Shown here piece after piece: positions 1 through 23,429 of a DNA stretch of 64,000 nt (position 1 is the stretch's first letter; every line of letters begins with the position of its first letter). This DNA is from Rhizophagus irregularis (lineage: Eukaryota). The stretch lies in the NCBI RefSeq assembly GCF_026210795.1, contig NC_089433.1, forward strand, positions 4,402,001 through 4,466,000, read 5' to 3'. The notes beneath the pieces are model-generated. The model was not told the origin of the DNA. It saw only the letters and a list, made by a program, of their open reading frames with translations, and searched no databases. A program made the position numbers and the translations under genes.

Positions 1-547
1 TCTCATGAATACCATCTACAGATTCTAAAGCATATGCTAAGGTAGAAAGATGAATAAACTTATTACTCCCAATATTAATCACAAATTTGTAATTACACAG
101 GAGAGCCTTATTTCCACCCACAAGTTCTACAGAAGAAAACTCAGGTAGGGAACATTCAGAAAGGTAACGTAAGAAGATAGTAACAGGATCAAAAGACCCG
201 AAAACTTGTATACTACCAGATCTAGGAAAATAACGAATGGTATGTACAGAATCAGCTAAAATGATAACAAACTCAATGCAAGCATTAAAAGTGCTACCAT
301 CCCCTGTACGTCGCCGTCTATTTAATGGATTGTCAGGTGTACTTTGTCTGCATCACCTCTCACCTTTTGGTTTAGACAAGTACTGTTCATAACCCTCAAA
401 AGCTTTATGAATAAAGTTGCTATTAATGGCAATAACATCCTTAGTAGGTTCAAGCTTATGACCAAGCATGGTGTAATCAAGCCTTTCAACATTGATCTTA
501 AATTCAGTAACAGTAAGAGATAGAGTAAGTTCACTAAAAGTAAGCAT
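1..547 (-). pseudogene. TBP-like protein resembling asfarvirus (ASFV) B263R; in-frame TGA at 353-355; runs off window start
   Basis: Read-through translation gives VIAINSNFIHKAFEGYEQYLSKPK..RRRRTGDGSTFNACIEFVIILADSVHTIRYFPRSGSIQVFG..LCNYKFVINIGSNKFIHL. This is colinear with ASFV B263R motifs as I recall them (ALNCNFGH..GYE..GDGTCFNSAIE..FPSTGEIQVPG..INFKFQIN). Confidence 0.75.
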
Positions 548-598
548 GTCTGGTTTTTTCTATTGATAGAAAAGAAATGTTCAAATTATTTTATCCTA

Positions 599-622
599 AG
601 AAAAAATCTAATTAAATAAAAC
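599..622 (+). promoter_or_regulatory. Copy of shared upstream motif (AGAAAAAATCTAATTAAATAAAAC)
   Basis: 21/24 match to the motif at 19805-19828 and 20520-20543; ends 29 nt before the ATG at 652. Confidence 0.55.
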
Positions 623-651
623 TTCTTCATCAATATCTCATATGAGATACT

Positions 652-1164
652 ATGACAAACAATAGCTTACCTTTCGAACTTTTAGAAAAGATATTCAAAA
701 CTTCATATGAAGGTACTTACTCCCGTTGGTATTGTCTTTGCAATTATGCATTAGTGTGTCGAAAATGGGCTGTAGTAGCAAACTCTCTCCTATGGGGTGA
801 AACAGACCTTTATAACCACTATAATATTAAGGAGTTCCAAATGTACAAACATCTCACAAAACCAGGGACAGTATGTGGAAAATATATCAGAAAACTTAAT
901 ATGGATGAGGTAAAATTATGGCCCATTTGTATTGTAAAAATGCTACAAGCTTGTCCCAATATCCAGGAACTTAGCATAATAGATTATCAATACTATGGTG
1001 GAAAAGGTGACGTTAGAGATTTGCTAAGTGAAATTCTGCATATATTACCAAACCTTTGAATGATAGATATCAGATATAGTCGATATTTTAAAAATAGAAA
1101 TGCCATTGAAAAACTTATAGAAACCCGTAAAGACCTAGAAATCAGAATAACATGGCAAATGTAA
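652..1164 (+). pseudogene. F-box (LRR-type) protein with in-frame TGA at 1057-1059
   Basis: N-terminal SLPFELLEKIF...YALVCRKWAVVANSLLW F-box and LQACPNIQELSI / LPNL*MIDI LRR-like repeats. The frame continues past the TGA to TAA at 1164. Confidence 0.8.
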
Positions 1165-1179
1165 TATTTGTAAAAGCTA

Positions 1180-1325
1180 ATCACTGCCAAAAAATTTGGG
1201 CACAGCCCTGTTACTGCCCGTCACTGCCGAAAAAATTTGGGCACTGCCCTGTTACTGCCCGTCACTGCCGAAAAAATTTGAGCACTGCCCTGTCACTGCC
1301 CGCCACTGCCCATCATTGCCGCAGA
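1180..1325. repeat. ~40-bp tandem repeat rich in CACTGCC
   Basis: TCACTGCC(A/G)AAAAAATTTG(G/A)GCAC(A/T)GCCCTGT unit x3 plus further CACTGCC copies, between convergent gene ends. Confidence 0.85.
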
Positions 1326-1443
1326 AGTTTGGGAAACACATGGATTTTTTCTAGCAAGATGACGCTTTAATTTAGAGGGAAAGTCAAAACTTGCTCCACA
1401 TAGATGACAGGTTAATCTTTCTCGAGAGTGTGAATTTTTTTTA
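1293..1443 (-). CDS. Short zinc-finger reading frame (C-x2-C...H-x6-C), -1 frame relative to the Gag-PR C-terminus
   Basis: Translates SRERLTCHLCGASFDFPSKLKRHLARKNPCVSQTSAAMMGSGGQ*. It has no ATG upstream of the finger and follows an A8 run. Confidence 0.55.
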
Positions 1444-1771
1444 AGTCGATAGTATCCATCTGCAAGGAAGTCACGTTAGTTTTCCGTTTATGTAGAGAAA
1501 TTGGAATGGTAATTTTTTTACGTAATGATAGAGGGATGGTCAGTTGCCGATTTTGGAAATCTAGAATGACATTAGCACGATCAATCCAAGGTACACCTAG
1601 CAATAAAAAGTCCTTATCACTCTTAACAACCATGAAGTCATCTTCGATTTTTTTAGAGTTCTCCCCATCATACACAAGAATACCAAGACCATATACTGTC
1701 CCAATAGTATCAGATTTTGTCGCAACACTACTAAGGTCAGGAGCATTACTTCTATCGACATCAAGATTTAG
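1412..1771 (-). pseudogene. 3' part (aspartic protease C-half) of the Gag-PR gene split by the Gypsy insertion
   Basis: Removing the LTR element and one TSD copy joins ..SNNIMKR (11320) in frame to LNLDVDRSNAPDL..FLLLGVPWIDRANVILDFQNRQLTI..*. Confidence 0.85.
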
Positions 1772-1775
1772 GCGA

Positions 1776-2309
1776 TGTTACCCCTAGTTACGTGTAGAGT
1801 TACAATTTACTACGCCAGAAAATCATGTGGAAAATTAGGATCTACTGTGCCTAACTGTGCCAAGCCGACCTAGCCGCAGCCTACTTAGCCTATTATTTCT
1901 ATTATATTTATTATATTAATTATATTTAATATAATCGATATAATTATTTTATTTATTATATTTAATTTATTTATTATATTTATTATATTAGTTATATTTC
2001 TTATATTTATTATATCTATTATATTTATTATATCTTTATATGTAGTAACTTTTATATAAATAACGTTGGTATTTTCCTTCGTTATAAAAAAAAAAGTTCC
2101 TTCAGTTCGAATTAGTTAACCTTAGTTCCTATTAGTTCTTATTCTTGTAATTATAAAGTTCTATAATAAAGTATAACCTTTTACACTATAAACGAACTCC
2201 CTACTTTAAGCGTGTCTTGTTTGATTGGATTCCAGTCATAGTTAAATGTACTTAATCTCCCTGACTGCAAATCATAGTTAATCTATTCAACGTACCGAAT
2301 CGGTTAACA
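1776..2309 (+). repeat. 5' LTR of element A
   Basis: TGTTACCCC...GGTTAACA; differs from the 3' LTR by about 5 transitions and short indels. Confidence 0.97.
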
Positions 2310-2311
2310 AG

Positions 2312-2328
2312 TGGTGATTCCTGCCAGG
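2312..2328 (+). promoter_or_regulatory. Primer-binding site (tRNA; Val-like, tentative)
   Basis: TGGTGATTCCTGCCAGG begins 2 nt after the LTR end. Confidence 0.75.
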
Positions 2329-2356
2329 TAAAAGGCTATACTGTGAATTAACAATT

Positions 2357-2562
2357 GATTTCTTTTCTCAGACGAACTTGAGAATACTTGCAGATGTACT
2401 TGCAGACGTAATTTCTTTTCTCAGACGAACTTGAGAATACTTGCAGACGAACTTGCAGACGTAATTTCTTTTCTCAGACGAACTTGAGAATACTTGCAGA
2501 CGCACTTGCAAACAAAATTTACTTTCTCAGACGTACTTGAGATATTAGCAGACGTACTTGCA
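2357..2562 (+). repeat. ~53-bp tandem repeat x4 in the element A leader
   Basis: Repeated TTTTCTCAGACGAACTTGAGAATACTTGCAGACG units. Confidence 0.9.
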
Positions 2563-2584
2563 ACAATTTGAATTTTGAAATTGA

Positions 2585-5500
2585 ATGCCCTTTTACAATT
2601 TATCTAAAGCAGAATTAAAATCACATCAAAGAAAACATCGTAGAGGAAGAGTGATCAACCAAAAAGAAGTTTACTGTATTCAGTGTTATCCAACAGATTC
2701 TATCCCAGCTGACAATATCCCTGACGGATTTGAGAAATTTTGGCTCTGGATTTCTATTCAGTACACAGCAAAACAATATACTGGAGCAACAGTAGCCGCT
2801 TTTAAAGTATTAAAAACTGAATTCTTTATAACTACACAACTTAATACACTTGTCGGTATAACTACTAAGATCCTACAAAGTATAAAGTTTCGACAAATAA
2901 ATACTCTTTTATTAGAATTATCCTTTTATTTACATAAATTATTTGAATTAACAAACGGATTCAAGAGTTTACCAACTGATACTCAAGTAACCAACGCATA
3001 CCAAATTTTTCATAATACACCAGTAAATAATAACGCTAACATGGATCAAGGACAAATGAGAGATCTTATGAAGTTAGTCTGGGGAGCTGACCCAACTGAT
3101 AATAATAACCCCAGAAATGTTGGAAACCTCTTGGAAAATACTTTGAATAATAATACAAATGCTATTACTACTGCTTTACAAAATAATCTTACCGCTATTA
3201 ATGCTCTTACAACTGCCAACCAAAATCGTACTACATCTAAAGTTGTGGATGTTCCCTTTTTCTATGGACGTGATGATGAGGATCCATATGAATGGTGTCG
3301 ACTCTTTGAAGCTGCTTTTGATGCTAATGGATGGCCAGATAATCGAAAAATTGCTTTAGCCGCTGGATTTCTTAAGGAAGCTGCCCGAGATTGGTATGAA
3401 GAGGATAGAGGAAATATCAATCAATGGCATATAGATGCCAATGCAAATAACTTTGATACTCGATTTATAAACTACTTTGCAACTGCTGCTCGAAGGAATC
3501 AGTGGACCAGAGAACTGCAAAATATTAAACAAGGAGACAATGAATCGGTAGAAAACTATTCTCAACGATTTAAAAAGTTGTTAAATAAAGCTACCCAAGG
3601 GGAAGCTTTAGCCGCAAGATACCAAATTAACTACTATATTAATGGTCTCAAGTCCTTCTTAGTTGGACAGGTAGTAATCGGGAATGCTGATACTTTGGAA
3701 GCAACTATTACCTGAGCTAAGTTAGTAGAATTAGGTGTAAATACTACTCTTTTAACTACAATACCTGTAACTACTAGTACAACAGAACCTATTCCAACTA
3801 CTACTACTACTACTGTTAAACCAACTCCACAAGTAGATAAAATGGAAGCATTAACAAAACAAATGCAACAACTCGCTCTTAATTATGCAAATCTGTCATC
3901 AGTTTTAATGGTTCAACAAAGCACTCCTCGAAATCCTAGACCTAGACCTAATAATAATAATAATCAAAATCGTCAAAATGGTCAAGCCTCTACTCAGAAT
4001 TCCTTCAATCCAAATATTACTTGTTTCAGATGTGGAAATGTGGGACATATTTCCAGAAACTGCCAAATGGGAAGAAATACCAATAATGGAAATATTAATG
4101 GTAATAATAATAATAATAATCGTCCTCGCCAAAGAGCATCAGTTACATCTATTAATTATGCAGATGATGAAGCAGAAATTTACTATGATGAATATGAGGA
4201 TGAATATGAGGAAGAATGGGAAGAAGAAGACGAATATGAAGCATATATTACAACTCATTCTAGATCTGTTCCATATGAGATATCCTCCCCTAGAGGAAGA
4301 AGAACAAGATTTTCAGAATCTCGAAAGGAAGACCAATTACGTACCCAACCTATTCCTCCAGTAACTCCTTCTACACCAATGGATATGGATGCTACAGCAG
4401 AATCTTCAACAAAAAGAAAAGTAAGAACCAAAATGGTCCCTGCACCTATTGAAAACGTCAATGAATTTGACATAGCTAAATATATTAGTGACCTTCCTTG
4501 TGGTCTATCTATCGGTCAAGCAACAGCTCAACTTCCTGTTTACAGGAAAGGATTAATTCAAAGTATGAGGAGAAAGCGTGAAAAGATTGATAACAATAAT
4601 TATATTGGAGAAAGTTACTATGGAGACTCCAACTCAGAAGAAGAAACTCCCACTACCGCTGCTAAATGTGAATTCCATATTAATCAACAGCCAGTTATTG
4701 CAGTAATTGATAGTGGAGCTGCAGTTAGTATTATGACAACTGCCATGATGAAAACTTTGAAATTAACTATCGATGGACCTTCAGAATATGTAATTAAAAC
4801 CGCCAATGGAACTAGAGTTAGATCATTAGGAGAAATCCAAAACTTACCCCTAAAAGTCAGAAATTTAATTATTAAAACTAATGTTCAAATCATAGAATCA
4901 AGCGATAGTGTTTTTATTCTAGAAAACAATTGGATGAGAAAGGTAAATGCTGCTCTTGACTGGGACAAGAAGACACTAACCATCAGATACAATGGACGAT
5001 CTACAACAGTCCCTGTGATTTTTACTCTTCCAAAACCTATTAAAATGAAGCAATCATTTGAGTATGATGACGAAGAGGAATATGAGTCTGAAGAGTTAGA
5101 AGAAGCCCAAATCTATATGTCTGATTTTTCTGGTTATTCAACAGAAGAATCCCTTGAATTTAACCCATGGGAAAATGAAGTATCTCCTGCCCACCAAAAT
5201 AATGAAGACGAAGAATTGGAAGAATCAAATCCTGCCATTTATTTAGCTCAAGCAGAAGTATATAGTGGAGAAAAAGTCAATCCAGACTTACATTTAGGAC
5301 CATTAGATTACCACCAACAAAGCCAATTTCAACAACTCTTGAGTGACTATGCAGATATTTGTGCTAAAAGCCAAACGGAAATTGGAAAAACAAATGTAAT
5401 TAAGCACAAAATTATTACAAAAGATGCCAGATGTAATCCTAAATATAGAGAATTTTTACAAGGAGAAATCACAAGAATGGAAAGTCAAGGACTTATAAGA

Positions 5501-7556
5501 AAATCAGCTAGCCCTTGGGCTTCACCTGTAGTAATTGTTGATAAAAAAGGAGGAGAAAAACGTTTATGCATAGACTATCAAAAATTGAATGCTGTCACCA
5601 AAGCAGATGCTTACCCATTACCTTGAATTGATGATATGCTTGAATCTTTTAGTAATGCAACATGGTTTACCACATTAGATTTAGCCAGTGGTTATTGGCA
5701 AGTAGCTATGGATCCAGCAGATGTGGAGAAAACTGCCTTCATTACTCCCTTTGGATTATATGAATTTCTAGTAATGCCCTTTGGTTTAGCTTATGCGTGG
5801 AACTTTTCAACGATTAATGAATAGAATACTCCAGGAGTATTTAGGGAAATTTGTAGCATTATATTTAGATGATGTAATCATTTACTCAAAGGGAAACTTG
5901 GAGCAACACTTGGATCATCTTAGACAAGTATTTGAAACTTTTAGACGAGCAAATTTGAAGATTAAACTAAAGAAATGTTATTTTTGCCTTGGAAATATTC
6001 ATTTCCTAGAACATGTAGTAGGACGAGAAGGTATCCGACCTGATCCAGAAAAAATTGAGAAAATTAGAACTTTTCCAGTCCCAACAAACCTAACGCAACT
6101 TTGCTCAGCATTGGGCTTATTCTCCTACTATCGAAAGTTCATCAAAGATTTCTCAAAAATAGCCAAACCAATGTTATTACTTTTAAAGAAGGAAACCCCT
6201 TTCTATTGGACTGAAAAACAGCAAATTGCATTTGATTATTTGAAGGAAAGATTAGTTAAATCTCTGATCTTAACATACCCTGACTTTGAACAACCCTTCA
6301 TTATTCATACAGACGCATCTGGAACTGGACTTGGTGCTGTGTTATCACAAATAAGAGAGGATGGAAAAGAACATGTAGTCGCTTATGCCAGCAGATCTTT
6401 GAATAAAGCTGAGTGCAATTACCCTATAACTGACCAGGAATGTCTTGCAATAGTGTGGGCTATCAAACATTTCCAACACTACTTAGGATTGAAACCTTTC
6501 ACAATTGTTACCGACCACTCTGCTCTAAAATGGTTAAAGACATCTAAAATCCCAAAAGGTCGCCGTGCGAGATGGGTCATGGACCTTCAACAGTACGACT
6601 TTAATATTAAGCATCGAGCGGGAAAAACAAATGCAAATGCAAATGCATTATCCAGAATGTTTGAAGAAGATAACCAAATTTTTAGTTGTTTTATGATTTC
6701 TATCGAAAAAGAAAGACAAACTAATGAAAATGAAAGCTCTACTCCAGTACATGAAGAGTATGATGCAGATTCAGAAGATGATTATACTGATAGACCTGCT
6801 CAAAGAGCTATCGATTTGTTAAATCGTTGTGATAATTTATTATACGATATGCAAAGCTACATTGAAGAACGATCAGGAAATAGTTCTCCTATGAATATTG
6901 TTTCAGGAATTCGATATGACTTTGACAACCCCAATGGACCTCATCCAGAAGATTGTATTTGTAAAGTTTGTCAACCTCCTCCAGCCCGTTCACCATCACC
7001 ATATAGTTGTTGTAACGAAATTATTTGTCAGTGTAATGAAGATAACTATTCAATTGATACAGAAGAATATAATAATTTGTGGGAAAGACAAATTAATGGA
7101 GATGCATTCTCTGATTATTCAGAAGAAAAACAGATTAATATTGAAGAACATATCGCCTGGACCATGTGTGGTATGGACCGTCAAGCTCTAGAAAATATGT
7201 ATTTGGAAAATATCAAAATTAAACAAGTAATCGCCGGTCAACCAATCAATCATGGTGGAAGTCGTTGTACCATAGAATGTGATACAGAAAATCATCACGT
7301 GCACACATACTGTACGATGTGCAAGAAGAATTTATTTTATGGAACTATTATACACGATTGTATCATTGGATTCACTTTAGGAAAAATTAGGCCAGATATG
7401 AATCCCAAATTCCTTATTACTAATCAATGGTGGAAAGAACCTCAAGCGGTACAACTTGAAAATAATATCAATTATCTTAAATATATCGAACGATTAATGA
7501 ATGATTTACCAGTTTACAAAGTATCTTTGGAACCTTTCATTGCCAATTTGGACTAA
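2585..7556 (+). pseudogene. Element A gag-PR-RT-RNase H with Cys/His-rich C-terminal extension
   Basis: Capsid (FYGRDDEDPYEW), [14 protein letters not shown] knuckle, protease [20 protein letters not shown] and RNase H TDASG/TDHSAL. Disrupted by TGA at 3713 and 5624 and a frameshift near 5795. Confidence 0.93.
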
Positions 7557-7650
7557 AAGTCCACCTCTTTTACATATTATAATTAACAAAGTATCAAAGG
7601 GTGAAAGCGAAAGTGTCCGCATCGTGACGAGACAGCCTAAATTTTCAAAA

Positions 7651-8913
7651 ATGGATATCGAACATTACAATAACATATATAATTATTTAAAATATAATCA
7701 ATTACCTTCTACATTAAATAACCAACAACAACAACAAATTCAAAAACAATCAGTATATTTTATTATCAAAAATAATTTTATTTATAAAAAGGATAAAAAG
7801 AAACAAAATAATTTATTACGAGTAATTAGAAGACATGAATTGGAACCAGTTCTTTTTATGTTCCACAATGATCCTACTGCTGCGCATTTTTCAGTTGATA
7901 CAATGTTTGACAAAATTCAATCAAGATATTATTGGCCACAAATGTACAATGACATCAGATCTTATGTCATGTCATGTGACTTTTGCCAACGAAAAGGAAA
8001 ACAAAAGACAAAGTTACCTTTACATCCTATTCCAGTAGAAAGTCCTTTTCATCAAATAGGAATAGATTTTGTAGGACCTTTACCTATAACTACAAATGGA
8101 AACAAATATATAATTACAGCAATGGATTATTTAACAAAATGGCCAGAAGCACGACCTGTAAAAGAAGCTACTGCAGAACAAGCTGCACTTTTTATCTATG
8201 AAGAAATAATTTGTCGACATGGATGTCCAGCAAAAATATTATCAGACCAAGGAACTCATTTTAGAAATCAAATAATTGAAAAATTAATGGAAAAATTTCA
8301 GATAAAACATTTATTTTCAATGCCATACCACCCTCAAACAAATGGACTTGTAGAAAGATTTAATCGTACTTTATTAGAATCTTTAGCAAAATTATCAACA
8401 GATCATATTGATAATTGGGATAATTATATTGCACCAATTTTATTTGCTTATCGTACTACAAAACATTCGACTACAAAAATCGCACCTTTCTTTTTATTAT
8501 ATGGACGAGATGCTAAACTACCAACTGATTCATTAGAAAATAATGGAACTCCAACTTTAATAAATCACATAGAAAATTTAGTTGACCAACTACCTCAAGA
8601 AATTGAAATAGCTAAGACAAATATTGAATTATCTCAACAAAAACAAAAAGAACGACATGATAGAAAATTACGCCATCAAATAAAATTTTCTATTGGAGAC
8701 AAAGTCTTATATTATGACGCAGCAAAAAAAAAGCAATGGACTGGAAAACTAAATCCAAAATGGAAAGGACCATACTATATTCATCAAGTTGGAGAAAAAG
8801 AAGCGTACAAATTACGAACTATAGATGGAAAAGTCTTACGAACTCCTGTAAATGGAAGTTTATTAAAATTGTATCACGATCGACAAAATTGGGAACCAAT
8901 AATTGTAGTATAA
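7651..8913 (+). CDS. Element A integrase (separate ORF)
   Basis: HHCC (H..AAHF..CDFCQ), IGIDFVG, SDQG, GLVERFNRTL and the GPY motif. It is in a different frame from pol; likely start is MDIEHY at 7651. Confidence 0.92.
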   Translation: MDIEHYNNIYNYLKYNQLPSTLNNQQQQQIQKQSVYFIIKNNFIYKKDKKKQNNLLRVIRRHELEPVLFMFHNDPTAAHFSVDTMFDKIQSRYYWPQMYNDIRSYVMSCDFCQRKGKQKTKLPLHPIPVESPFHQIGIDFVGPLPITTNGNKYIITAMDYLTKWPEARPVKEATAEQAALFIYEEIICRHGCPAKILSDQGTHFRNQIIEKLMEKFQIKHLFSMPYHPQTNGLVERFNRTLLESLAKLSTDHIDNWDNYIAPILFAYRTTKHSTTKIAPFFLLYGRDAKLPTDSLENNGTPTLINHIENLVDQLPQEIEIAKTNIELSQQKQKERHDRKLRHQIKFSIGDKVLYYDAAKKKQWTGKLNPKWKGPYYIHQVGEKEAYKLRTIDGKVLRTPVNGSLLKLYHDRQNWEPIIVV

Positions 8914-9145
8914 TTAGTCACGATTAAGATCTACAACTCGTGGCAAATAGTTAATTTTACTTAGTACGATTTACAAGTGTTACAGACGATTAAAATGAAT
9001 TTGCGACTCAATGCCCCAGAAAAATTTATTAAAAAGATGAAAAATTTTAGAAATTTTATTGTGAAAAACTTAGTGAAAAATTTATTACAAAAATATATTA
9101 GAAAATTATAGGGAAAATCAGAAAGAAGAAATTTTTTTTTTTTAT

Positions 9146-9840
9146 TTAATCAACTTCTTCATAACTAGGATTAGAAGTAGAACCATTTGACAAAATTATA
9201 TTACATTCCTCAAAAAGCATTTGTTTTGCTTCTTCAAATGCTGCTTCAGCACGACCTCTACTACTCTGCAAGCTTATATTATGTGAAATTAATTGACAAA
9301 CTCCTTCTTCCAGACCTTCTATTGTTCGCTGTTGGTCGATGATTAACTTTTGGGCCTCCCATAATTTCTGCTGCTCTCCAGCCCAGATTTTATTATGAAA
9401 CTCCGTCTCGAGACTCTTATGGGCCCCATCTCCAGCAAATTTTCAAACTTCTCTTCAAGTTCTTCTTTTTCTTCTTTAGCTTTTGCAAGATCCTCTATTA
9501 GAAATAAAAATGGAGATTTATGGTCACTCCAAGTTAGTTAAAAACTAAGTGGATAAATCGATAGCACAAAAGAGTTCTACAGGTAGAGGCCTTTCAAGAC
9601 TTAAATATCCTAGAAGTACAAGTACCCCGTCTACAAGCTGCGCAAAATCAACCTTTCAAGAACTGGATATAAGGTCGAAACCCTGTCTACAGGCAATCAT
9701 ACCGTTCAAGAGACATCTTAAGAACCTTGCGTACAATACCCACCTTCAAGTTGACGAACTTTCATCTTACGCGCTTCTTTAAGCCTTTGAAATCTTGCTC
9801 GAGATTTCTGACGTGAGGTATTAGATCGATGACAAGTCAT
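9146..9840 (-). CDS. Putative antisense two-exon coiled-coil gene inside element A (apparent 1-nt frameshift near 9422)
   Basis: ATG 9840; exon 1 ends at 9744 (..KVRQLE|GT); intron has ACTAAC at 9533-9538 and TAG at 9495; exon 2 reads EDLAKAKEEKEELEEKFENL.. then KSLETEFH..SYEEVD*. Confidence 0.55.
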
Positions 9841-10341
9841 GATAGATAGATTAGTAGATAGATAGATAGGTAGACAAAGAAAATTTTGGAAAAATTTTGG
9901 GATAATATCAAAGATTTTACGTGAAGATAAGAAAAAGAGAAAGGGAAAAATTTAGACTTTATATAAGAAATAGGCACGACGCGAAAACACGTTAAGATCA
10001 GGCACAACAAAAATATTACGAAAAATCACGACGTGAAAAATTATGAAAAATGTGGACGCGTAAGACACGCAAAAATCACTTTTGAAAATATTTCTGGAAA
10101 GTTCTAGAGAAAAATGTGAAGATATTTTTAGAACAAGGAAAAATAATCTTAAAATAGAAAAACGCGGTTAAATAATTTAAGCGCTAAAAATAACTGATAG
10201 ATGTGGTGAAACATGATAAGTAATACAAAAACCTCATCAGAAATAAACAAAAATCTAATCAGCAAAATGATCTACAGGAATTTAAAACATATATATAGAT
10301 GTGGATAAGTTGACAAAAGAGTTTAAACCGCTTGAAGAAAA

Positions 10342-10755
10342 ATGGATTTTTCAGAAATATTAGAAGATATTCAACAAACAACTTCAGAGGAAATTAATTT
10401 TCCACCACCGCCCTACATGGAAGAAGAAGATTTCCAAGTTAAATTCTCTGCAACTCTGAGAAGTGTAACGAAATCAATACGACTAAAAGATACACAATTG
10501 GCGATAATTAACTCTTTCTATTTAGGACAACTCCTAGACCAACTACCAACTCCTAGCGAACGATTGAAATACAAGCATAAAATGTCATTACATTATGCAA
10601 CAATTGTAGAAAAAACTTTTGATATTTTTGAGTTTTTTCCAGAACAAATCTTAAGGACGAAAAAACTAGACGTCCAAGTTATTAGAAAAATTACCAGACC
10701 TCAGATAAGGAGACTTAGAAATAATTTATTGATTTTCGCAGGAGCTGCAAATTAA
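10342..10755 (+). CDS. Accessory 137-aa ORF of unknown function before the PPT of element A
   Basis: Intact ORF with an upstream TATATATA (~10290); its stop abuts the PPT AAGAGGAGGAA. Confidence 0.7.
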   Translation: MDFSEILEDIQQTTSEEINFPPPPYMEEEDFQVKFSATLRSVTKSIRLKDTQLAIINSFYLGQLLDQLPTPSERLKYKHKMSLHYATIVEKTFDIFEFFPEQILRTKKLDVQVIRKITRPQIRRLRNNLLIFAGAAN

Positions 10756-10766
10756 GAGGAGGAACC

Positions 10767-11319
10767 TGTTACCCCTAGTCACGTGTAGAGTTACAATTTA
10801 CTACGCCAGAAGATCATGTGGAAAATTAGGATCTACTGTGCCTAACTGTGCTAAGCCGACCTAGCCGCAGCCTACTTAGCCTATTATTTCTATTATATTT
10901 ATTATATTAATTATATTTAATATAATCGATATAATTATTTTATTTATTATATTTAATTTATTTATTATATTTATTATATTAGTTATATTTATTATATTAG
11001 TTATATTTCTTATATTTATTATATCTATTATATTTATTATATCTTTATATGTAGTAACTTTTATATAAATAACGTTGGTATTTTCCTTCGTTATAAAAAA
11101 AAAAAGTTCCTTCAGTTCGAATTAGTTAACCTTAGTTCCTATTAGTTCTTATTCTTGTAATTATAAAGTTCTATAATAAAGTATAACCTTTTACACTATA
11201 AACGAACTCCCTACTTTAAGCGTGTCTTGTTTGATTGGATTCCAGTCATAGTTAAACGTACTTAATCTCCCTGACTGCAAATCATAGTTAATCTATTCAA
11301 CGTACCAAATCGGTTAACA
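10767..11319 (+). repeat. 3' LTR of element A
   Basis: Near-identical to 1776-2309 and preceded by the PPT at 10754-10766. Confidence 0.97.
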
Positions 11320-14172: not shown

Positions 14173-15890
14173 TGCCAGTTTCACAGATTTTTATAGACCC
14201 TACATTTAATAAACAAATCGAACAAAATTATATCCTTCAACAAATCTATTACCATCCATGTGGATATTATCGTACTCCTGAAAAACTTTGGGCTAAAGTG
14301 CAAGCTGAGGGCCATGATTTTAACATATCTGATATTACAGAGTGGTTGCATTGTCACCCACGTCTGCCACCCGTGGATAAACACTTCTTTCTCATTTAAC
14401 TTTATTTCTCGTTACTTTGCTTGGTTTAGATTTTATTTTTCTTTTAACTTCTCGCTTTTCTTCTCATACATCCGTAGTATTTATTCTCAATACTACTGCT
14501 CATTCATAATATTCCCAAAATATTATGCTGCCTGTAATATTTATTCTTTCAAATATTACCATCTTATTTCTTATAAACTGCGAGAGTTCTCCTAACTTCT
14601 TATATTTCATACAATAAAATGAGAATAACTCCTTTTACTTTACTTTTCTGGACTTAATAATAATATTAATTAATTCTCAAGCATACAATGAGCATATTCA
14701 AGATAACTTTTAATAATTAATATTTATTTTATTAAATTTGAGTCAAAACTGACTGCAGAATTCCTAACGAATCCCACCTATATTTATACATTTTTAAGAA
14801 AATTATTTCTACTATTTCTAACTTTTCTACTAATAAAAATTTAAGAACAATAAGAAAATAAAGATGTATTATCATATGACTATCTCGTGACTAAACTAAA
14901 CTAAACTATAAATATTATTTTATCAGTTAATTATTTATCCATCAGTTAATTATTTATCCTTGTTCTATTTGGTCTTTTATCCATCTGCTCACGTGATTAT
15001 CCTGATTTCTCGGGTTACAGCATAAACAGGCTATATGGCAAATACACTCACCTATACCCAAGTATGTTCCACAGGTTTCTTTTAATAAGATTACTCGACC
15101 AAATATGTATCATCAAGCAGATATCTTATATATGCCCTATGATACTGTAGATAGAAAGCTGTATAAATACTGTCTGAATATTGTAAATGTTGCTAGCCGA
15201 TATAAAGCTTAAGTACCTCTAGAAGATCGCAGCTCTGCACATATTGCTAAGGCATTTAAAAAGATTTATAGCAAAGCAGACTGCCCGCTTATTTGGCCAA
15301 GAGTTTTACAAGTAGATGGGGGATCAGAATTTAAGGATGAAGTTATCCGATTAATGGATGAAAAAGGTGTACGTATTCAGGTGGGTACTACTCATAAGAG
15401 TCAGGCTATTGTTGAACGGTATAATCGAACTTTAGCAGAGAGACTTTTCAAAATACAGGATGCAAAGGAACTCCTTACAGAAGGTGTGAATACTGCCTGG
15501 GTTAAGAACCTTTCTGATATTGTGAATGAGCTAAATAATTCTAATACTCGTCTGCTAGGTATGTCTCCAGTTGAGGCAATCCAGAAAGATCAAGTGTATG
15601 CACTACCTTCAAAAATTTGGAAGGATAGACCTGTAAGTGCAGAAGAAATACGTTTACCAGCTGGTTCTCTTGTAAGATACTTACTTGATAACTCAGATTA
15701 CCGAGGTAGGAGACGTGCAACTGATCCAATATGGTCTACTAAAGTTTATACAATTGAATCTTCCACAGTTGTTGATGGGCAGCCGGTTATATATAGGTTA
15801 TCTGATGGACCTAAAAAAATATTTACTCGAGAAGAATTATTAGTTGTGCCATCTGATACTATGCTGCCTCCTACTCATATATTATATTAA
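14160..15890 (+). pseudogene. Polinton-type rve (DDE) integrase interrupted by a solo LTR; TAA at 15210-15212
   Basis: Excising 14352-15023 restores IYYHP..EWLH|KQAIWQIH..HQADIL..LQVDGGSEF..QAIVERYNRTL. Confidence 0.9.
14352..15019 (-). mobile_element. Solo LTR of the element B family
   Basis: Reverse complement of the LTR at 44182-44866, with perfect TSD GCAT (14348-14351 / 15020-15023). Confidence 0.95.
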
Positions 15891-18800
15891 TTTTCAAGTT
15901 GTGGTATCCTATAGTCTCCATGTGCATACATTGTGATATTATCTTGTGCAATCCATTTTTTATCATCCATAGGGGATAACCCCACCTTCGACATTTCTAT
16001 AACATTTATGGCATGTCTATCAGATCGGATTGCTCTAAAGGTGACTGTATCATTATGTTTAGGATCAAAGAGTGCCTTATTATACCGCTCATGGTGGAAC
16101 TCTTTTTTAACTACCTTTGAGGGGACACCTTTAGCCTTACAGATACCATGTTTTGGATTGGTGGTCTCATCCCCTACCTTGAGAATGGAGTACATTTTGG
16201 GACGGAGGCCAATAAATTCTGCTATAACTGCTCCATTACATTCATCCTTAAATTTTCCTGGGATTTTCATATTTATGTCAGTCTTATCACCTAATGCTTT
16301 TCGTACAGGATGATCTTTAGGATAATCACTGAAGTCAAATTGGTCTGCCATATCTATAAGGTCTGCATTAATATCCTCAGTTTGGATTTGTACAAAAAGT
16401 GAGTCTGTGTCTGTATAACATAACTGGATTTTTTCACCATATCGTACTTTACGAGTATTATAGTAGAATTGATACATACAGAGCTTCGAGAGATCAAGTA
16501 CACTCATACCCACATATGTTGGATGGTTAAGCATTACCTCCACTTTTCGTTGGTAGATTGCAACAAGATTTTCTGAGAATATTTTACGACCCTTGAATGC
16601 AGGATCTGAGGTAAGCTTTTTATATTTCTTGGGATGGGTTTGGGGTTGTACTACTGAGACACGTACACGTTTCCTGAGATTTTCCATAGTTTTACCAAAT
16701 ACACTATTATTCATGAGTTTATAGAAGTCCTTCTCAAAATCGTTTTTAGCCTTAGCATGTTCAGCGGTGTTAAATTCTATGTATGGTTTTATCCATGGAG
16801 CCTGCTCGAATTTTATAGCTTTATAGACCTTCTTGATTACTAAGCCCTGGCTAACATAATACTGGAGATTTCTATAATGAACTACATATTCATCCTTATC
16901 AAATAGGTTAGGAATGAGCTTATCCGTGGGTGTATATCGTTGTCCTGAACGTGCTATTATTTCCTGCTGCTTTTTACTAAGCCATTCCTTCTTAACCTTC
17001 ATTCGTTCTGGTGCAAGGGGGTAATCTGTGTGTTGTGAATGGAGGGCTTGGGGATATTCCAGTTTAACTTTAAGGATATATCCTTCAGAAGAATCGTCTG
17101 GTATTTCATTACTTTCTATTTGCCTTTGAATGTTAGATAACTCGTTTTCCTCCTTTATCCAGTGGAAGTTACCTGTAGGTAAGTATTGCAACATGGCCCA
17201 TCCATATAGGTTATTTGCATCTAAGTATAGAATAGATGACTTGGGCTTATTTGCGGTCCATTTACCTTCTCCCATACCTGGATTATTTGCACGAGCATAT
17301 CGTTTACTTACCATAGAGATTCCACCACGTAATCCTTGTTCTACCATCATGTACATGTCCTGATCAGTTATAAGATCCAATCTTTGCCCTGTCATTAAGA
17401 ATAGTGCATCCCATGCGAAGCCTGGTGTTAAATAGTACCAGAGAGGATCTAACCCATATTTTTTCAAGGCCATTTCTCGGAAATTCTGAAATATATCGGC
17501 TAGTAGGAGGACGTCAGTTTTGAGATAAATGTCATGATAATCTTGCATTGTTTTACATCCTGCTTTTTCCCATACATACTGTGCATATTCGTATTCTTTA
17601 TCACTAATGTGGGTTCATTAAGTTAGCTATAGAATGCTCCTTTAGGTGGTAAACTAGTTTTCTCGAACTTTTTCCAGTCATCCATGTATTCATATGGGTA
17701 GACACCTTTCTTAAGATAAATCTCGAGTAATTCAGGTGGTATTTGACTTCGTGTTATTTTAAAGTTTTCAGGATGTGCAAAGCATCTACCTGCATCAATT
17801 CGCCATAAGTGTTGTGGATTACTACATTCTTGTGCTCTACATTTTTCTGCGCCTAGGTTGGATGCTAATTTGTCGAGACTTGATTTCATGAATTGTAAGC
17901 TGTCTATAAATCGGAGGGAACCTAACTTGAATGCCATATACTTTTCCATGTTATAAGGGATAGGATCAATATCATCCTCACATTCCATTGCACCAATTCC
18001 TTGCATAATTATGTATCCATCATATCCTGATAAATTGTGAAAGATTACTGGGATATGCATTTCACGAGGTTTTATGGATAAGTCAAGATTGCATCCTTTA
18101 TGTGCTGCACCTCGATACCTTCCTGTAATATGGCAGTGGTCTCTTACTTTATTTCCATTTAAGGGGTTGCGACATATCCAGCAGTTTATTGCATTATCAT
18201 AACTTACTTGCTCTTGAGTTGTTAACGGCATCATTTCCATTGGGTTTCTGAATTCATTGCGAATTGCTTCAGCCTCATTTAGCATTTCGATTACAAATTT
18301 TTGTGCTGCATTTTCTCCTATAAATATCTTCTGTGATTCACTTACACCATCATATCTTACCTTAATATATGAGTATAAGCAGGGGATTTGCTCTTGTACT
18401 TTCTTGGTTTTCTTATCTTTGTCTTCATCTGTGGGTGGTATGTCCATTACTAGGGCTTCAAAGTCTGCAACAAAGTAATATGGGACTTGCATGCGGCGTT
18501 TCCAGTTCTTGAATTCATATATATCATTTCCTTTCTTTACTGATGGCATTCGGTCTGCTTGTGGGGTTTTCTTTAATCCTCGACATATTGCTACATGTTT
18601 GTTATGGATTTCTTGTTGATGTGTGAAGTGGGAGATACACCATCGGCAGATAAATGTTGCATGTCCATCTTTTGTACGTTTATTTACTAAACGGCTCATA
18701 TTCTTAATCCAGCAATAGTGCTGCTTTTTCCCGTTACTGATAAGTACTAAATCTATTATTTTACGGCCCTCTGCATCATCCCTATCGGTAACATATATTG

Positions 18801-19782
18801 GACATAGGCGGTGGTCACGCCATTCACAGATGCAGAGGGCAATAGTTGGGTTCTGTCGCTCAAATCTTCTTAGAATTACCTCATCAGCTTGTACTGGAAA
18901 TTTGATACCTTCAAAGTTTAACTCATTTACATACTCCTTATACTTGGAAATTCTTTCTGCGTTCTTTTCTACTGGATGTAATGCTGCTAGGATTGCCCAC
19001 TGGAAGCATTTGTCATCATCATTAGCTGGATTTACTACTCCCTTTTTCGTGGCAAGATCTTTTGGGAGTGGTATATGTCCTGCTCCTGTGGGTGGTTGGA
19101 ATTGCGAGATTTCTATAAATATTTTTTCTACACGATAGAATTCCCAACCTGATCCGTAATTTACATAGTCTTTTACTTTCTGCATGATTCTTGCTAATGC
19201 AAAGTTAAATGTACCATTAATATCTGTTAATGGTAGGATTGGCATATTGCGAGTTTTAAATGGTATGTTATATCTGTAGATATACTCTACTCCATCATCT
19301 TCACTAAAGTTACCATCTCCGAATAATCCCTCAAGGTAAGAATCTAAATGTCTTATTGTGACAAATATTCCAATTCTTACTTTTATTGATCCCAATCGAT
19401 TTCTTTCATCCCGAAGAATATTCTGGATTGTTTGACTGTGTGCTGTAAGAAATGAAGCATAGTCATGCTCTCCAGGTGTTCCTATAGCAATATCAGCCGT
19501 AAAGTTTGAGTCTGTTAACTCCTTTCCTATACGTACCTGATCACGACGTTCAAAGACTACCTCATAATGTGGGTCTGGGTCAATTTGCATTATGCGGGTT
19601 ATCTCTTCATTGGTTGCCGCCACTTGTGCTTCACGGATTTGGCGGATCTTATCCTCATATTCCTGCAATTTTGCATTTGAGCGGGGATATGGGATGGACT
19701 TGACAGGTACCTGCTTGAGTTCAGCTAGAACTGATCGGGTGACTTGTCTGTATTGGGCACTTCTTGCTTGATGTGTTGACAT
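15887..19782 (-). pseudogene. Family B DNA polymerase, Polinton/Maverick (protein-primed) type with endonuclease VII-like insert; stop + frameshift near 17610-17625
   Basis: Motifs ADFEAL, DHCHITGRYRGAAH..CNL, FHNLSGYD, FIDSLQFM, KGVYPYEY, DVLLLADIF, LRGGIS, YLDANNLYGWAM, KLMNNSVFGK, YTDTDS, KMY and KAKGV. Confidence 0.93.
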
Positions 19783-19804: not shown

Positions 19805-19828
19805 CTTTTATTCAATTACATTTTTTCT
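19805..19828 (-). promoter_or_regulatory. Shared upstream motif AGAAAAAATGTAATTGAATAAAAG (PolB)
   Basis: Identical 24-mer at 20520-20543; lies 22 nt upstream of the PolB ATG. Confidence 0.7.
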
Positions 19829-19919
19829 GAAAATAAAATTAATTGTTCGCCTACCCTATAAGGATAAAAAAAGATGAAGGCGGGTTAATATCGCCTTCTA
19901 AAATTTATCTGGATATAAT

Positions 19920-20480
19920 CTATTCCTCGTCATCTGAGTCATCATCATCCAAGTCACCGAACACATCCTCATCAGGAGTATCCCCATCCTTAAATAACTC
20001 AAAATTGCACATCATTCGGATGTATTCTCCCTTATTAGTTTCTTCCGATATAAAACTACAATGGAGAATAGCTTGTTCTATGACTACCATTTCTTCGAAT
20101 TTGGTATACTTTTCTTGACTAATTTTAATTGATTCATCGGCAAGTTTATTAAAATTTATACCACCATCTGCACAATCTCGCCAGAAAGCCCTTTCAGCTT
20201 TCTTACATATATTTGCCACCTGTTCGTATGCCTCCTCGGCTTGCATGCGCCACTTTCAGAGTACTCGTTCAGCTTCGGCTCTCCAGATTGGGTTGACTTC
20301 TAGAAGATGTGGTCCGAAATTGCTACTTGGAATGTATTCCAGGATATGGCCTACAAGTTCGGGGATTGCTGATACTGCGTGCGGGGTTTGACAGCTTTTT
20401 AGGATTTCCCTATTGATAGCTATAAGATCAGAAACTGTGCAGCCGAAGATTGATGCCAACTTTTCTGCGGTATATGCCAT
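19920..20480 (-). pseudogene. F-box-like protein with acidic tail; in-frame TGA at 20256-20258
   Basis: AIPELVGHILEYI..LLEVNPIWRAEAERVL*KWRMQAEEAY; the two listed ORFs share a frame. Confidence 0.7.
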
Positions 20481-20519
20481 GTTATGTACTATTTATCTGT
20501 ATAGTTACTTGGTACCTAC

Positions 20520-20543
20520 CTTTTATTCAATTACATTTTTTCT
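20520..20543 (-). promoter_or_regulatory. Shared upstream motif (F-box-like gene)
   Basis: 24/24 identical to 19805-19828; lies 39 nt upstream of the ATG at 20480. Confidence 0.7.
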
Positions 20544-20965
20544 CGGTATAAGGGTAATTGCTTACCTTGCTATTCCGCTCTATTGACCCCATGGCTGGTT
20601 TCCTGGATGGGTTAATATTTTCTTACCTTTTTTGGCTCCGTTGGCTTTGAAATCCTATTTCTTGTTCGGTTGGGGGTAAGTAGGTGAAAATATTAATAAA
20701 TGATTTAGATTATGAAATAAGTAGGTGAAAATATTAATAAACGGTTTAGATTATGAGATAAGTAGGATATAAGTAAGTAAAAAATATAAAAAGGTAGTCA
20801 GGATTGGACCCACAGCCGGTGGAAGAGTAATGGGAGTAGCAAGAAAAAGGTGACTAGAATTGGACCCACAGCCGGTGGGAGAGCAATGAGGTGGTAGCAA
20901 GAAAAAGGTAACCAGGATTGGACTCCGAGAAAAGTGAGCCAGAACTGGGATTTATATACTACTTT

Positions 20966-22450
20966 TGTTCTCCAATGACAAATATCAAATCAGCTGTATG
21001 CTTACGCATTTTTTTGGCTCACAAAGAGTTATTTTCCATTGAATACAAGACAAATATTTTAAATTTTTATGCAACAAATTATTGGATAGAATTAAAATAA
21101 TAAGATCACGTGCATCTAGTACTACTGTACTACCAATTGCAATTATTCTACAAAGACATTTTTTAATTTCACTTATAAGAAATGTCGCTTTCATTTTGGC
21201 ATATATATTCCTTGTCCTCATATCAACGACCCTGAATATTTTTATAAAGATACACAATGTGGTATCCCTACTCCCTTTATCATGTCGCAACATAGAAATG
21301 CATGCGTAATTCATTAACATATCTTTACAAAAATACAATGTTTCAAGAATATCAAAAATAAAGATAAACCGAAATTGGAACATACAGTATATCAAGAGAT
21401 TTTGTTAATGACAAGTCCTCTCATGCCAATTTATTATATTACAGATGGCTTAATGGTAAATCAAAATATATTACCTCTAGATGACTGGGTATTTCATATG
21501 ACAGCAATATTCATGCTAGAGATTCTTCTTCAACATTCAAACTGGGCAACAGACACATGTACCGAAAAAGTTTGTCCAACTTTTAATACAATTTGAGTCT
21601 TAATTTACGGATGCAAAAACAACAAGATATACATTTCAAACATACTTGCCATTGTGTATTCAATAAAATGTGATTACTGTCTAATCGCAAGGCTACAAAT
21701 CATGACTATTTAACGATAGCGCGCAAATATTGCTTTCTATTTGTAAAATCTCAATACGTCAAAGTACCTATCTGACATTTATTGTACAAACATTCTGATT
21801 CAATCCCGAACGCTGATGACTATCCGTTTTTGGTTCCTTATTTCGTGATGGATTCAAATCATAAGAAACAAATTCTGACAAAACTCAATCAAGCGTCATC
21901 ATCCACCGGTTCTTCTGCACCACCTACTAATTACAACCCGATTCCAGATGTATTCATACATAAAAAATATTATGATATTATACCAAAAGATCTGATTTAC
22001 GTGAATGATTGTTATATGGTTTCTGGATTTAGAGAATGGTTTACTTATATATACAACATTGATGAATTTTATTATCCACCAGAGAGTAGGACCCCACGTT
22101 ATAATGCAAAAGGCAAATATGTCGCAAGAACTCCAGTATACCGTTCAGGAGTAGTAGAAAATTACGTACCATTACATATTGTAGAAAAATCTTAATTACA
22201 AAGAACTGAAAAATTGAAGGTGGATGCTTTAGCAAAAGAGGCAGCATACCATAGAACTACTCTCAAGCATTACAATGCTCGTACCAATACCATTAAATCT
22301 TAATGGACACATCAAATAGTTTTCACGATCACATGCCTAATTATTTGGCCAAGAGACAACAAAATCATGAATCTGATTTTAGTAACACTACGTTAAACAA
22401 AAATTTCAATAAAGCTCTCAAAAAAAATAATCTCCAAACTCAAGGGGCTA
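20966..22450 (+). pseudogene. Degenerate coding remnant of unknown family, probably TE-derived
   Basis: Broken ORF pieces (e.g. YNPIPDVFIHKKYYDIIPKDLIY..REWFTYIY) with a composition distinct from the flanks. Confidence 0.35.
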
Positions 22451-22608
22451 TATGATTTCCTATATATCCATACATCAATATATCGGACAATACAGCAGAG
22501 GTCGAATGTTGTCGGGCTGGATGTGGGAGGTGCTAGTACCACCCACCTCCAGGTCTACAACCCGTCGCAGTACCTATATGGCCCCTACAGGGCTTAGGAA
22601 TCCCCAAT

Positions 22609-22821
22609 ATCTGTCACCATCTGTCAATAACATCTGTCATATAACAATATACTAAAAAAGGATAAAATAAGGGAAAAGAGAGGAAAATACGATAGAATCA
22701 GAGGGGTATGACAGATATGACGGATATGACAGATGTTTCAGAAAAATCGGAAGAGGGATATCTCCAGAAAAAAGTTTTGATTTTACCCCCCCAAATCTGT
22801 CATTCTGTCATAGTTCTGTCA
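22609..22821. repeat. Three clusters of 3x TCTGTCA motifs in alternating orientation
   Basis: ATCTGTCA at 22609, 22619, 22632; TGAC(A/G)GAT at 22709, 22718, 22727; (A/T)TCTGTCA at 22795, 22803, 22814. Confidence 0.85.
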
Positions 22822-23429
22822 TATGATCAGGATTCAGTCTATTCATCTGTCGGAAGCAGTGAGATAGCAAACCAGGTAAGTTAGCAGGTAAGCCCCTAGA
22901 AGGTCTATAGAGCCAGTAAGACCAACCCTGTCTCGCCCCCATCAGAAAAAATAAGTAATTGAACAATGGGTATACCATAAGTAACCTATAACATCGGGAA
23001 ATTTTTTGGGAAGCAGATCTGCGCAGATTTTCAGAAATTATATCTGCGCAGATCTTATACCCTGGCGCAAAACATTAGAGGAAAAATCCAATAAAAAACT
23101 GCGCAGATTTTATAAATAACAAAGTTCTGCGCAGATTTTTAAATAAAAAACCTTCGAAATATCTCAGCAATTTTTTTCAGTAAAAATCTGCATCACAATA
23201 ATACAAATTAATTTATTGCATTAATTACTAATTTATTTATATAATCAAAATTACTTTTTTATTATATATTAACAAGTTTACAAATACAATTGAAATCTAT
23301 TACTAGTCATTGCTATTCATCATCTTTTTACTGCACATTTACATGTTGTTAATGGTTTGGAACATTGTTCCAGTTGGTTCGATTCCAACAAACAAAAAAC
23401 AAAATAGAAAATCAGAGATATTTGTTACA

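Follow-up and report, generated by a model that had tools for sequence, protein, structure and literature searches.

The Maverick family to which the element described here belongs has presumably been known since 2006-07. Two Polintons of Glomus, P_Gi1.1 (Polinton-1_GI, 11,954 bp) and P_Gi1.2 (11,019 bp), have been listed as lacking an MCP, a penton and a protease, one of them carrying an ATPase and the other not (PMC4028283 Table S1); that table does not list Gag among its columns, and the word 'gag' is absent from the main text. The undetected capsid of the Glomus Polintons is a stated open point, and the missing capsid of a Phytophthora Polinton was found later (PMC7805220). Mavericks have expanded in Glomerales (PMC11952901), and in Rhizophagus irregularis their expansion is one of the latest (PMC8647823). 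The Fig. 5 legend of Starrett et al. 2021 (PMC8502044) labels Gag/retropepsin, as well as TBP, on a 'related element', which is probably the element analysed here. Gag in a Glomus Maverick has thus probably been labelled already, and in the main text of that paper the word 'gag' occurs once, in this legend, with no accompanying analysis of conservation, selection, fold or frameshifting.

Layout and decay of the copy in the window

The window that we analysed is a 64,000-nucleotide stretch of R. irregularis DNA. Read directly along it, the genes follow one another in the order TBP-like(-), F-box(+), Gag-PR(-), integrase(+), PolB(-) and ORF(-) (Table 1). They are tightly packed: the starts of Gag and integrase share an overlap of 13 nt, and the stops of integrase and PolB overlap as well. 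This order and these strands are those of the initial annotation, which had also correctly set apart two later LTR insertions, each with a 4-bp duplication. The full Ty3/Gypsy-type element, whose LTRs (1776-2309 and 10767-11319) are identical at 529 of 534 positions, has PBS- and PPT-like sites and a target duplication with one mismatch, and it splits the protease. The Gag-PR pieces on its two sides join at residue 950 of the R. irregularis protein P0279, whose 1069 amino acids bear out the length of about 1070 originally estimated. The solo LTR in the integrase matches, in inverted orientation and at 94-96%, both LTRs of an element at 33600-44870 and is missing from two other loci (L001, L002). 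The LTRs found in the window belong to inserted elements and not to the Maverick.

Table 1. Features of the Maverick copy and of the elements inserted into it (window coordinates)
Feature	Position	Strand	Remarks
TBP-like gene	2..547	-	3' part lies past the window start; one in-frame stop
F-box gene	652..1164	+	PF12937 E 3e-07; in-frame stop 1057-1059
-1-frame extension of Gag-PR	1293..1442	-	past A8 tract 1435-1442; C-x2-C-x12-H-x6-C zinc finger; without own ATG
Gag-PR, whole gene including insertion	1412..14172	-	interrupted by full LTR element
Gag-PR aspartic protease, C-terminal part	1412..1775	-	96.7% to P0279 residues 950-1069
Full Ty3/Gypsy-type LTR retrotransposon	1776..11319	+	later insertion, outside Maverick; gag, PR, RT, RNase H, integrase by Pfam
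Gag-PR main part	11320..14172	-	96.5% to P0279 1-950; stop at 13522-13524
Integrase, Polinton-type rve	14160..15890	+	97-98% to P0037; split by solo LTR; one in-frame stop
Solo LTR	14352..15021	-	later insertion; 4-bp duplication; splits integrase
PolB, Polinton-type family B DNA polymerase	15887..19782	-	B-family motifs; frameshift near 17614
Variable accessory ORF	19920..20483	-	one stop
Non-coding right region	20484..22991	.	membership partly uncertain

The window copy of the Maverick is dead. Stops interrupt the Gag, integrase, TBP-like and F-box genes, PolB is frameshifted, and the protease site reads NTG instead of DTG.

The replication and integration genes are those of a Polinton. The integrase P0037 carries PF00665 (E 3e-09), and the window integrase is 44-51% identical to integrases of capsid-side Polintons versus 26% to those of the window's LTR elements, which identifies it as a Polinton-type rve integrase. 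PolB contains the motifs DANNLY, KLMNNSVFGK and YTDTDS, has weak Pfam matches to DNA_pol_B_2 and Endonuclease_7 and is about 50% identical to PolB from capsid-bearing Polinton loci; its sequence is that expected of a Polinton-clade family B polymerase, for which protein priming is putative. An intact 1317-aa homologue is present at locus L006, and PDB sequence searches with PolB returned nothing significant. The TBP-like gene, without a match in a direct Pfam search, is 54% identical to an intact ORF of locus L008, whose closest clusters in the Atlas consist of Nucleocytoviricota proteins (score 0.93-0.96), 34-43% of their members having the TBP Pfam domain. In L006, L008 and L010 the F-box gene lies at the corresponding place on the same strand.

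The right part of the element is less regular. The accessory ORF had been taken for a second F-box gene, a label that we dropped, as the ORF has neither a Pfam match nor significant similarity to another F-box. A promoter-like motif of its own accompanies it (the 24-nt motif occurs at both 19805 and 20520), and a hairpin (z -4.8) lies on the 3' side of the ORF; other copies diverge at 19874, or their PolB joins 20520 directly. A further promoter-like motif (22945-22985) faces right; another repeat cuts it off at 22992. Depth was followed across this region, and joints lie at 22991/22992. A TIR search at the right end yielded only a 41-nt promoter-like inverted motif. This end is ambiguous, the left end lies outside the window, and position 22900, at which the element had been said to stop, is not a demonstrated terminus.

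Domains and reading frames of Gag-PR

The main part of Gag-PR encodes a coiled coil, a capsid domain (12397-13197), a CCHC knuckle, an acidic tract, an A-tract near 11860, a helical domain and the N-terminal half of the protease. The capsid model (pLDDT 87.9) is two-lobed and its top 35 structural matches are all retroelement capsids; in the Foldseek search no capsid match reached E <= 0.001 (best 0.014), every listed row being a capsid. The N-lobe holds an insert of about 100 amino acids, which may affect the assembly of a shell. A protease model, built for the L008 homologue, matches Ddi1 and retropepsins (E 2.5e-07) and has a DTG active site. In profile comparisons Gag-PR matches the Gag (prob. 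89.8%) and the protease (96.6%) of LTR elements in the window, and PDB sequence searches with Gag returned nothing significant. According to these models, Gag-PR is a retroelement capsid joined to a retropepsin fold. Three Ty3/Gypsy features, namely the Gag capsid fold, the CCHC knuckle and the aspartic protease, are present, and a fourth, RT and RNase H following the protease, is absent.

An RT profile matched none of 93 loci, and the RT motif pair occurred in none of 148 Gag relatives. The initial annotation, in which Gag-PR ends after the protease with no RT, was thus right about RT, but the end of the gene is not a simple one: the -1 frame at the A8 tract encodes a zinc finger. In 5/5 loci that extend beyond the protease (the window, L006, L008, L010 and L034), this finger is conserved and is followed by a convergent gene. 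It scores as zf-C2H2 with E 1e-4 to 4e-4, which is under the Pfam cut-off; a background scan was run alongside. Direct repeats flank Gag-PR in none of L006, L008, L010 and L034, so that the gene has no LTRs of its own, as originally stated, and no cryptic ones. Programmed slippage at the A-tracts is a proposal from sequence that is unproven, because no stable or stimulatory hairpin follows the tracts (z -0.95 to +0.28) and tract length differs between near-identical contigs.

Conservation of Gag-PR and distribution of virion genes

The integrase tree separates a fungal side (45 loci, 148 kb; the loci are short and none reaches an element end) from the other side with a support of 100/100. Rooted on LTR integrases it is unreliable (branch 2.4) and gives no direction of change. 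The Gag start lies head-to-head with integrase in 31 of the 35 informative fungal-side loci, the exceptions being L012, L033, L082 and L086, and in 0/40 loci of the other side; jelly-roll-capsid and A32 genes are found on that side. The complete order of TBP, F-box, Gag-PR, integrase and PolB recurs in a lineage whose integrase is 67% identical, and the position of Gag-PR is conserved down to 43%. R. irregularis assemblies hold six adjacent Gag/integrase accession pairs, on several contigs, and three intact 1069-aa Gag-PR proteins; in three sequencing runs, the depth of integrase-PolB contigs was 17-31 times that of low-depth neighbours, as expected of an interspersed multi-copy element. A further run, X17, presumably of RNA, was set aside, since expression does not show in contigs. 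Gag-PR is under purifying selection (dN/dS 0.10-0.29; capsid 0.22, helical/PR-N 0.13, PR-C 0.10), as are PolB (0.07-0.12) and integrase (0.16), and the distances of the Gag N-terminal part and of integrase covary (rho 0.64, 0/2000 permutations, 21 loci). The family is a multi-copy Maverick/Polinton of arbuscular mycorrhizal fungi in which Gag-PR is stably carried. Of the three refuting conditions set out initially, two failed: Gag-PR recurs in other copies and in distant relatives, where it does not evolve neutrally, and no direct repeats flank it.

Capsid-like and penton-like profiles match 13 and 9 loci, respectively, every one of them on the non-fungal side. With these profiles, which derive from animal-side ORFs, no double-jelly-roll capsid or penton was found in the window or in the 45 fungal-side loci, whose left arm lies outside view. 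Pfam gave no adenain among the scanned ORFs, and A32 is absent from the visible part of the window's subfamily. In what is visible, the lack of jelly-roll and adenain genes noted initially, like that of a penton, agrees with the published table of 11-12 kb Glomus elements; sister subfamilies, however, have kept A32 next to Gag (L033; CAB4418758 with CAB4418762; P0200). Because it persists there, the morphogenetic module has not been wholly replaced, and of the suggested exchange of the virion module for Gag and protease, the stable Gag-PR stands whereas a clean swap throughout the family does not.

Scans of IMG/VR with Gag, PolB and the TBP-like protein found no relative, and integrase found one at 35%. 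Among the taxonomy names covered, none belonged to a Rhizophagus element. Gag had no match in GTDB; integrase matches on 12 GTDB contigs were rejected as bacterial relatives, as they look like eukaryotic contamination of bins.

Possible roles of Gag and comparison with known systems

We infer a capsid role for Gag from its modelled fold. Gag may well assemble a retrotransposon-like particle that holds the DNA of the element in place of a jelly-roll capsid, the reading that we favour, at about even odds; Gag shells normally pack flexible RNA and not 12 kb of double-stranded DNA. In such a mechanism, an ancestor would have taken up the gag-pro of a Ty3/Gypsy-type element and lost pol. The excised linear DNA would be copied by PolB through protein priming, A-tract slippage would set the ratio of Gag to Gag-PR to Gag-PR-zinc-finger, the CCHC knuckle and the zinc finger would bind element DNA, and the retropepsin would mature the shell; A32 would help only where a subfamily still has it. 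The particle would shield the DNA and integrase and deliver both to other nuclei in the coenocytic hypha. More tentatively, the Glomeromycota Mavericks could be a cross-realm chimeric lineage, in which an integrating DNA replicon that descends from Polintons and replicates by protein priming is housed in a Gag capsid that is matured by retropepsin and, in some subfamilies, filled by A32. The 'missing capsid' of the Glomus Polintons would then be Gag, which would also be the first shell of its kind to enclose DNA without reverse transcription.

Alternatively, though we consider this unlikely, Gag-PR is stable but domesticated, as a scaffold for a PolB/integrase complex or as a dominant-negative restriction factor that holds back LTR retrotransposons inserting into the element. 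The long coiled-coil N-terminus, the large N-lobe insert and the added helical domain set it apart from an ordinary Gag, the window copy was struck twice by LTR elements, and domesticated capsids with other roles (Arc, PEG10, Drt2) are among the fold matches. However, both capsid lobes, the knuckle, the active-site protease and the A-tract junctions are kept across lineages, and restriction factors are usually capsid fragments. It is less probable still that a divergent virion module (capsid and A32) occupies the unseen arm of complete elements and that Gag-PR is accessory. With 141 matches, A32 ATPases occur widely in Glomeromycota, and in some subfamilies they lie near Gag; L008 has a 218-aa left-arm ORF that matches neither Pfam nor Atlas, a negative that speaks neither for novelty nor for absence, and the Phytophthora capsid also came to light late (PMC7805220). 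Against this, the R. irregularis A32 clusters have 1-7 members compared to 66 for that of Gag-PR, and the published copies, only 11-12 kb long, have no MCP or penton (PMC4028283). Moreover, L008 and L006 together span 11,249 bp with seven genes; as the visible genes fill 11.2 kb, there is little space for others.

That Gag packs RNA of the element, which the RT of an LTR retrotransposon would reverse-transcribe in trans, is very improbable: RNA is what the CCHC knuckle and Gag shells usually bind, and intact RT-bearing LTR elements are at hand, but LTR-like repeats were not found in L006, L008, L010 or L034, the genes lie on both strands with overlapping ends, and the element's own PolB is under strong selection. 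That an LTR insertion into a Polinton left Gag-PR behind as a one-off or neutral remnant, as the nested insertions and decay of the window copy might suggest, can practically be dismissed given the conserved position, the dN/dS values and the intact copies reported above.

If Gag does form a DNA-containing particle, the element would offer a natural starting point for delivering genes to fungi that resist transformation. The shell would also be a possible reason for the Maverick expansion in Glomerales and its recent counterpart in R. irregularis, and Gag is a testable answer to the undetected Glomus Polinton capsid (PMC7805220).

The element resembles Polinton-1_GI/P_Gi1.2 (PMC4028283) in host genus, in PolB and rve integrase, in a size of ~11-12 kb and, as far as it is visible, in the missing MCP, penton and adenain, and the presence of an ATPase in one of that pair parallels the two subfamilies seen here. 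They are probably of the same family, judged by host, size and missing genes rather than by sequence. With animal Mavericks/Alpha adintoviruses (Polintoviricetes) the element shares the convergent integrase-PolB cassette (integrase 43-51%, PolB-C about 50% identical). Upstream of integrase, however, those elements have capsid-like, penton-like and A32 genes, whereas here Gag-PR fills the slot, there is no capsid- or penton-like match, and the accessories are TBP-like and F-box genes. The capsid fold, CCHC knuckle and retropepsin are those of Ty3/Gypsy elements (Metaviridae) and of domesticated Gags (PEG10, PNMA2, Arc), but RT, RNase H and LTRs are lacking, a zinc finger stands where pol would begin, and the carrier is a DNA-polymerase element. 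The highest ranks of virus classification are built on capsid lineage. A stable union of a Polinton replicase with a Gag capsid, if true, would mean that two deep lineages had exchanged parts, a rare event of the kind represented by cruciviruses and bidnaviruses.

Conservation of the Gag-PR gene and state of the window copy

The Gag-PR gene belongs to the element and is no one-off insertion: it lies head-to-head with the integrase gene in 31 loci on the window's (fungal) side of the integrase tree and recurs in several R. irregularis copies. The locus set comprised the best 80 of 522 relatives found by scanning JGI metagenome contigs with the integrase alignment, plus 13 further loci; 89 of these 93 retained at least 230 aa of integrase and were placed on the tree, whose two-side split, read as unrooted and under a long-branch warning, received support of 100/100 in a 70-row subset (19 near-duplicate or long rows removed). 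The Gag N-terminus, labelled with a profile of its coiled coil built from eight Gag proteins, is head-to-head with the integrase in 31 of 45 loci on the window's side (4 without it, 10 too short) and in none of 44 on the other side (40 without it, 4 too short). A capsid-or-later profile also matches 12 loci, half of which represent one near-identical lineage.

This near-identical lineage, at 67% integrase identity and pieced together from overlapping contigs, has the order TBP-like, small ORF, F-box, Gag-PR, integrase, PolB. In a deeper subfamily (loci L024, L086, L032-L038 and L044), head-to-head Gag and integrase are followed by a small convergent ORF and a plus-strand PolB, so the Gag-integrase link is better kept than the integrase-PolB adjacency. 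In R. irregularis assemblies, the accession numbers of six Gag/integrase pairs differ by 1-3, and Gag-PR copies of 1069 aa occur on three different contigs. In three runs, contigs covering integrase-PolB have 17, 23 and 31 times the depth of neighbours with low depth, which roughly points to tens of element copies, sequencing depth not being copy number. Locus L007 (1-4400) holds a relative that breaks off within the protease and adjoins a Plavaka transposase (E 5e-26), which fits a copy on a fungal chromosome. Polinton contigs turn up in archaeal and bacterial genome bins (L082, L086 and other GTDB loci), probably as eukaryotic contamination.

The ORF map, junction sequences and a Pfam scan bear out the gene layout of the initial annotation, except that its second F-box gene was not confirmed as an F-box. 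The window's Gag pieces are 96.5% and 96.7% identical to an intact 1069-aa R. irregularis protein, with the junction at residue 950, and its integrase pieces 97-98% identical to an intact 352-aa protein, which makes the host R. irregularis or a very close relative. The LTRs of the insertion in the protease agree at 529 of 534 positions and are accompanied by a 4-bp duplication with one mismatch. Every gene of the window copy carries stops or frameshifts, and the copy is dead.

Features located in the window
Feature	Position	Strand	Remark
Motif (G/T)AATTGAATAAA	582-621, 19805-19828, 20520-20543, 22945-22985		also in relatives L006, L008, L017, L024, L086
Complete LTR retrotransposon	1776-11319		inside protease of minus-strand Gag-PR gene; RT-RNase H ORF ends in long Cys/His-rich tail
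Its integrase-to-3′ LTR interval	8930-10755		~1.8 kb
Its 139-aa ORF	10336-10755		no Pfam match
Solo LTR	14352-15021		inside integrase gene
Repeat arrays	22992-26300, 27400-30500		~110-125-nt repeats, palindromic cores
Inverted repeat	32394-32930		near-perfect, 540 nt, MITE-like
Second LTR element	33600-44870		
Its pol ORF	40493-42832	+	P-loop domain weakly matching thymidylate kinase (E 2e-4), placed after RNase H and before integrase; unusual for Ty3/Gypsy
Tandem repeats, then transposase-like fragments	52674-56641		weak DUF4218

Capsid fold and virion genes

The capsid model, built from 48 sequences (pLDDT 87.9), comprises two helical lobes and an insert of ~100 aa. In a structural search of 48,161 chains, its top 35 matches were without exception capsids of retroviruses, retrotransposons or domesticated Gags, the best at Z 10.7 with an rmsd of 2.1 over 82 residues and several aligning across the two lobes; no unrelated chain scored above 4.7. 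Foldseek ranked PEG10, HIV-1 and PNMA2 first with weak E-values. The C-terminal model contains a four-helix domain and a retropepsin (Ddi1, E 2.5e-07), and profile comparison linked both capsid and protease to their Ty3-type counterparts within the window. Our preferred reading, to which we give an even chance, is that Gag would form a Ty3-like particle carrying the element's DNA and integrase; whatever goes further than composition, conservation and fold we infer. Domestication of Gag-PR for a non-packaging role, also raised by the initial annotation and compatible with the domesticated capsids among these matches, is possible but doubtful.

The element shares its convergent integrase-PolB cassette with loci on the other side of the tree. 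Upstream of the integrase, these other-side loci carry capsid-like, penton-like and A32 (packaging ATPase) genes, with one Pfam Capsid_N match (E 2e-4) among the capsid-like ones. Profiles made from the capsid-like and penton-like ORFs match 13 and 9 loci, of which 6 and 4 match by construction, but none in the window or among fungal-side loci (148 kb, all incomplete). Table S1 of PMC4028283 gives an 11,954-bp Glomus Polinton without MCP, penton, ATPase or protease and an 11,019-bp one with ATPase only; loci L008 and L006 together span 11,249 bp, and the window copy minus its insertions 10.7-12.8 kb, so that the visible genes nearly fill an element of this size. A capsid hidden in complete elements, for which the incomplete loci leave room, is accordingly unlikely.

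In locus L033, A32 adjoins the integrase and a 12-codon Gag-like start remains; one R. irregularis contig holds A32 and Gag four accessions apart, and one gene model fuses them. The 141 A32 relatives, the named ones from seven Glomeromycota species, fall into small clusters, against 66 members for this Gag, which suggests that the window's subfamily may be without A32. The proposed swap of the virion module for Gag and protease would thus be incomplete across the family, A32 persisting in other subfamilies.

Protease end and selection

Matches to the RT profile are confined to the two LTR elements in the window; the 93 loci give none. RT motifs are likewise absent from all 148 Gag relatives taken from the top 150 of 552, and the longest Gag relative has 1096 aa (n=211). 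Reverse transcription in trans is improbable. The initial annotation, in which Gag-PR ends after the protease without an RT, is right about the RT, but an A-tract opens a further reading frame. A KK motif terminates the protease end in 36 of 41 relatives. In all five sequences reaching past the protease an A8-A9 tract opens a −1-frame C-x2-C-x12-H-x6-C finger with no ATG. These fingers come from three lineages, the most distant at 43% integrase identity, and in L008 the stop of the finger abuts that of the F-box gene. In a background scan of 939 tract-frames the pattern occurred in 8: the 5 at the protease end and another 3 that fall within long ORFs. Beyond the knuckle lies a second A-tract, which keeps the reading frame in the window copy; among 34 relatives that have the knuckle and lack the protease, Gag ends at this tract in 21, with 12 from one cluster. 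Judged from sequence, the arrangement resembles double slippage along gag/pro/pol in which a nucleic-acid-binding finger has taken the place of pol; however, no stable RNA structure was found 3′ of the A-tracts, and tract length differs among near-identical contigs, both of which count against double slippage.

In pairwise comparison with the 67% lineage, the capsid domain has a dN/dS of 0.22, the stretch from capsid to knuckle 0.29, and the helical and protease parts 0.13 and 0.10; PolB has 0.07-0.12 and the integrase 0.16 where synonymous sites are unsaturated. Gag-PR, at 0.10-0.29, is thus not neutral, and its being a neutral remnant is scarcely credible. Gag-N and integrase identities covary (rho 0.64, 21 loci, 0 of 2000 permutations), an outcome that kinship alone favours, with some shuffling among the deeper subfamilies.

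Element ends, upstream motif and published elements

To the right of PolB the copies differ: most diverge at 19874, and some join PolB to 20520. The motif AATTGAATAAA lies upstream of PolB and accessory genes in the window and its relatives, which also share 3′ hairpins. A further copy of the motif, at 22945, faces right and is interrupted at 22992 by a different repeat; therefore, either the element could run on beyond 22900 or another copy of it could start there. Other strains repeatedly show a junction at 22992, suggesting that an abundant DNA transposon ends at this position. Together with the Nucleocytoviricota-like TBP gene, the motif and hairpins hint at an element-specific transcription signal, and (G/T)AATTGAATAAA may resemble the mimivirus AAAATTGA promoter.

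According to earlier reports, an MCP has yet to be found for the G. intraradices Polinton (PMC7805220), Maverick expansion occurs only in Glomerales (PMC11952901, in text containing neither 'gag' nor 'capsid'), Mavericks are among recent expansions (PMC8647823), and Glomus and Rhizophagus are among the sources of A32 genes (preprint 10.64898/2026.06.19.733378, 2026, in text without 'gag'). Among the search listings and the papers cited here, we found no published analysis of a Gag-bearing Polinton; the founding papers of 2006 and 2007 may describe these ORFs. The legend of Fig. 5 in section 3.4 of PMC8502044 (Starrett et al. 2021) labels Gag/retropepsin and TBP on a 'related element', probably the one described here. 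The family is known, and its Gag-PR feature is real, surprising and essentially unexamined.
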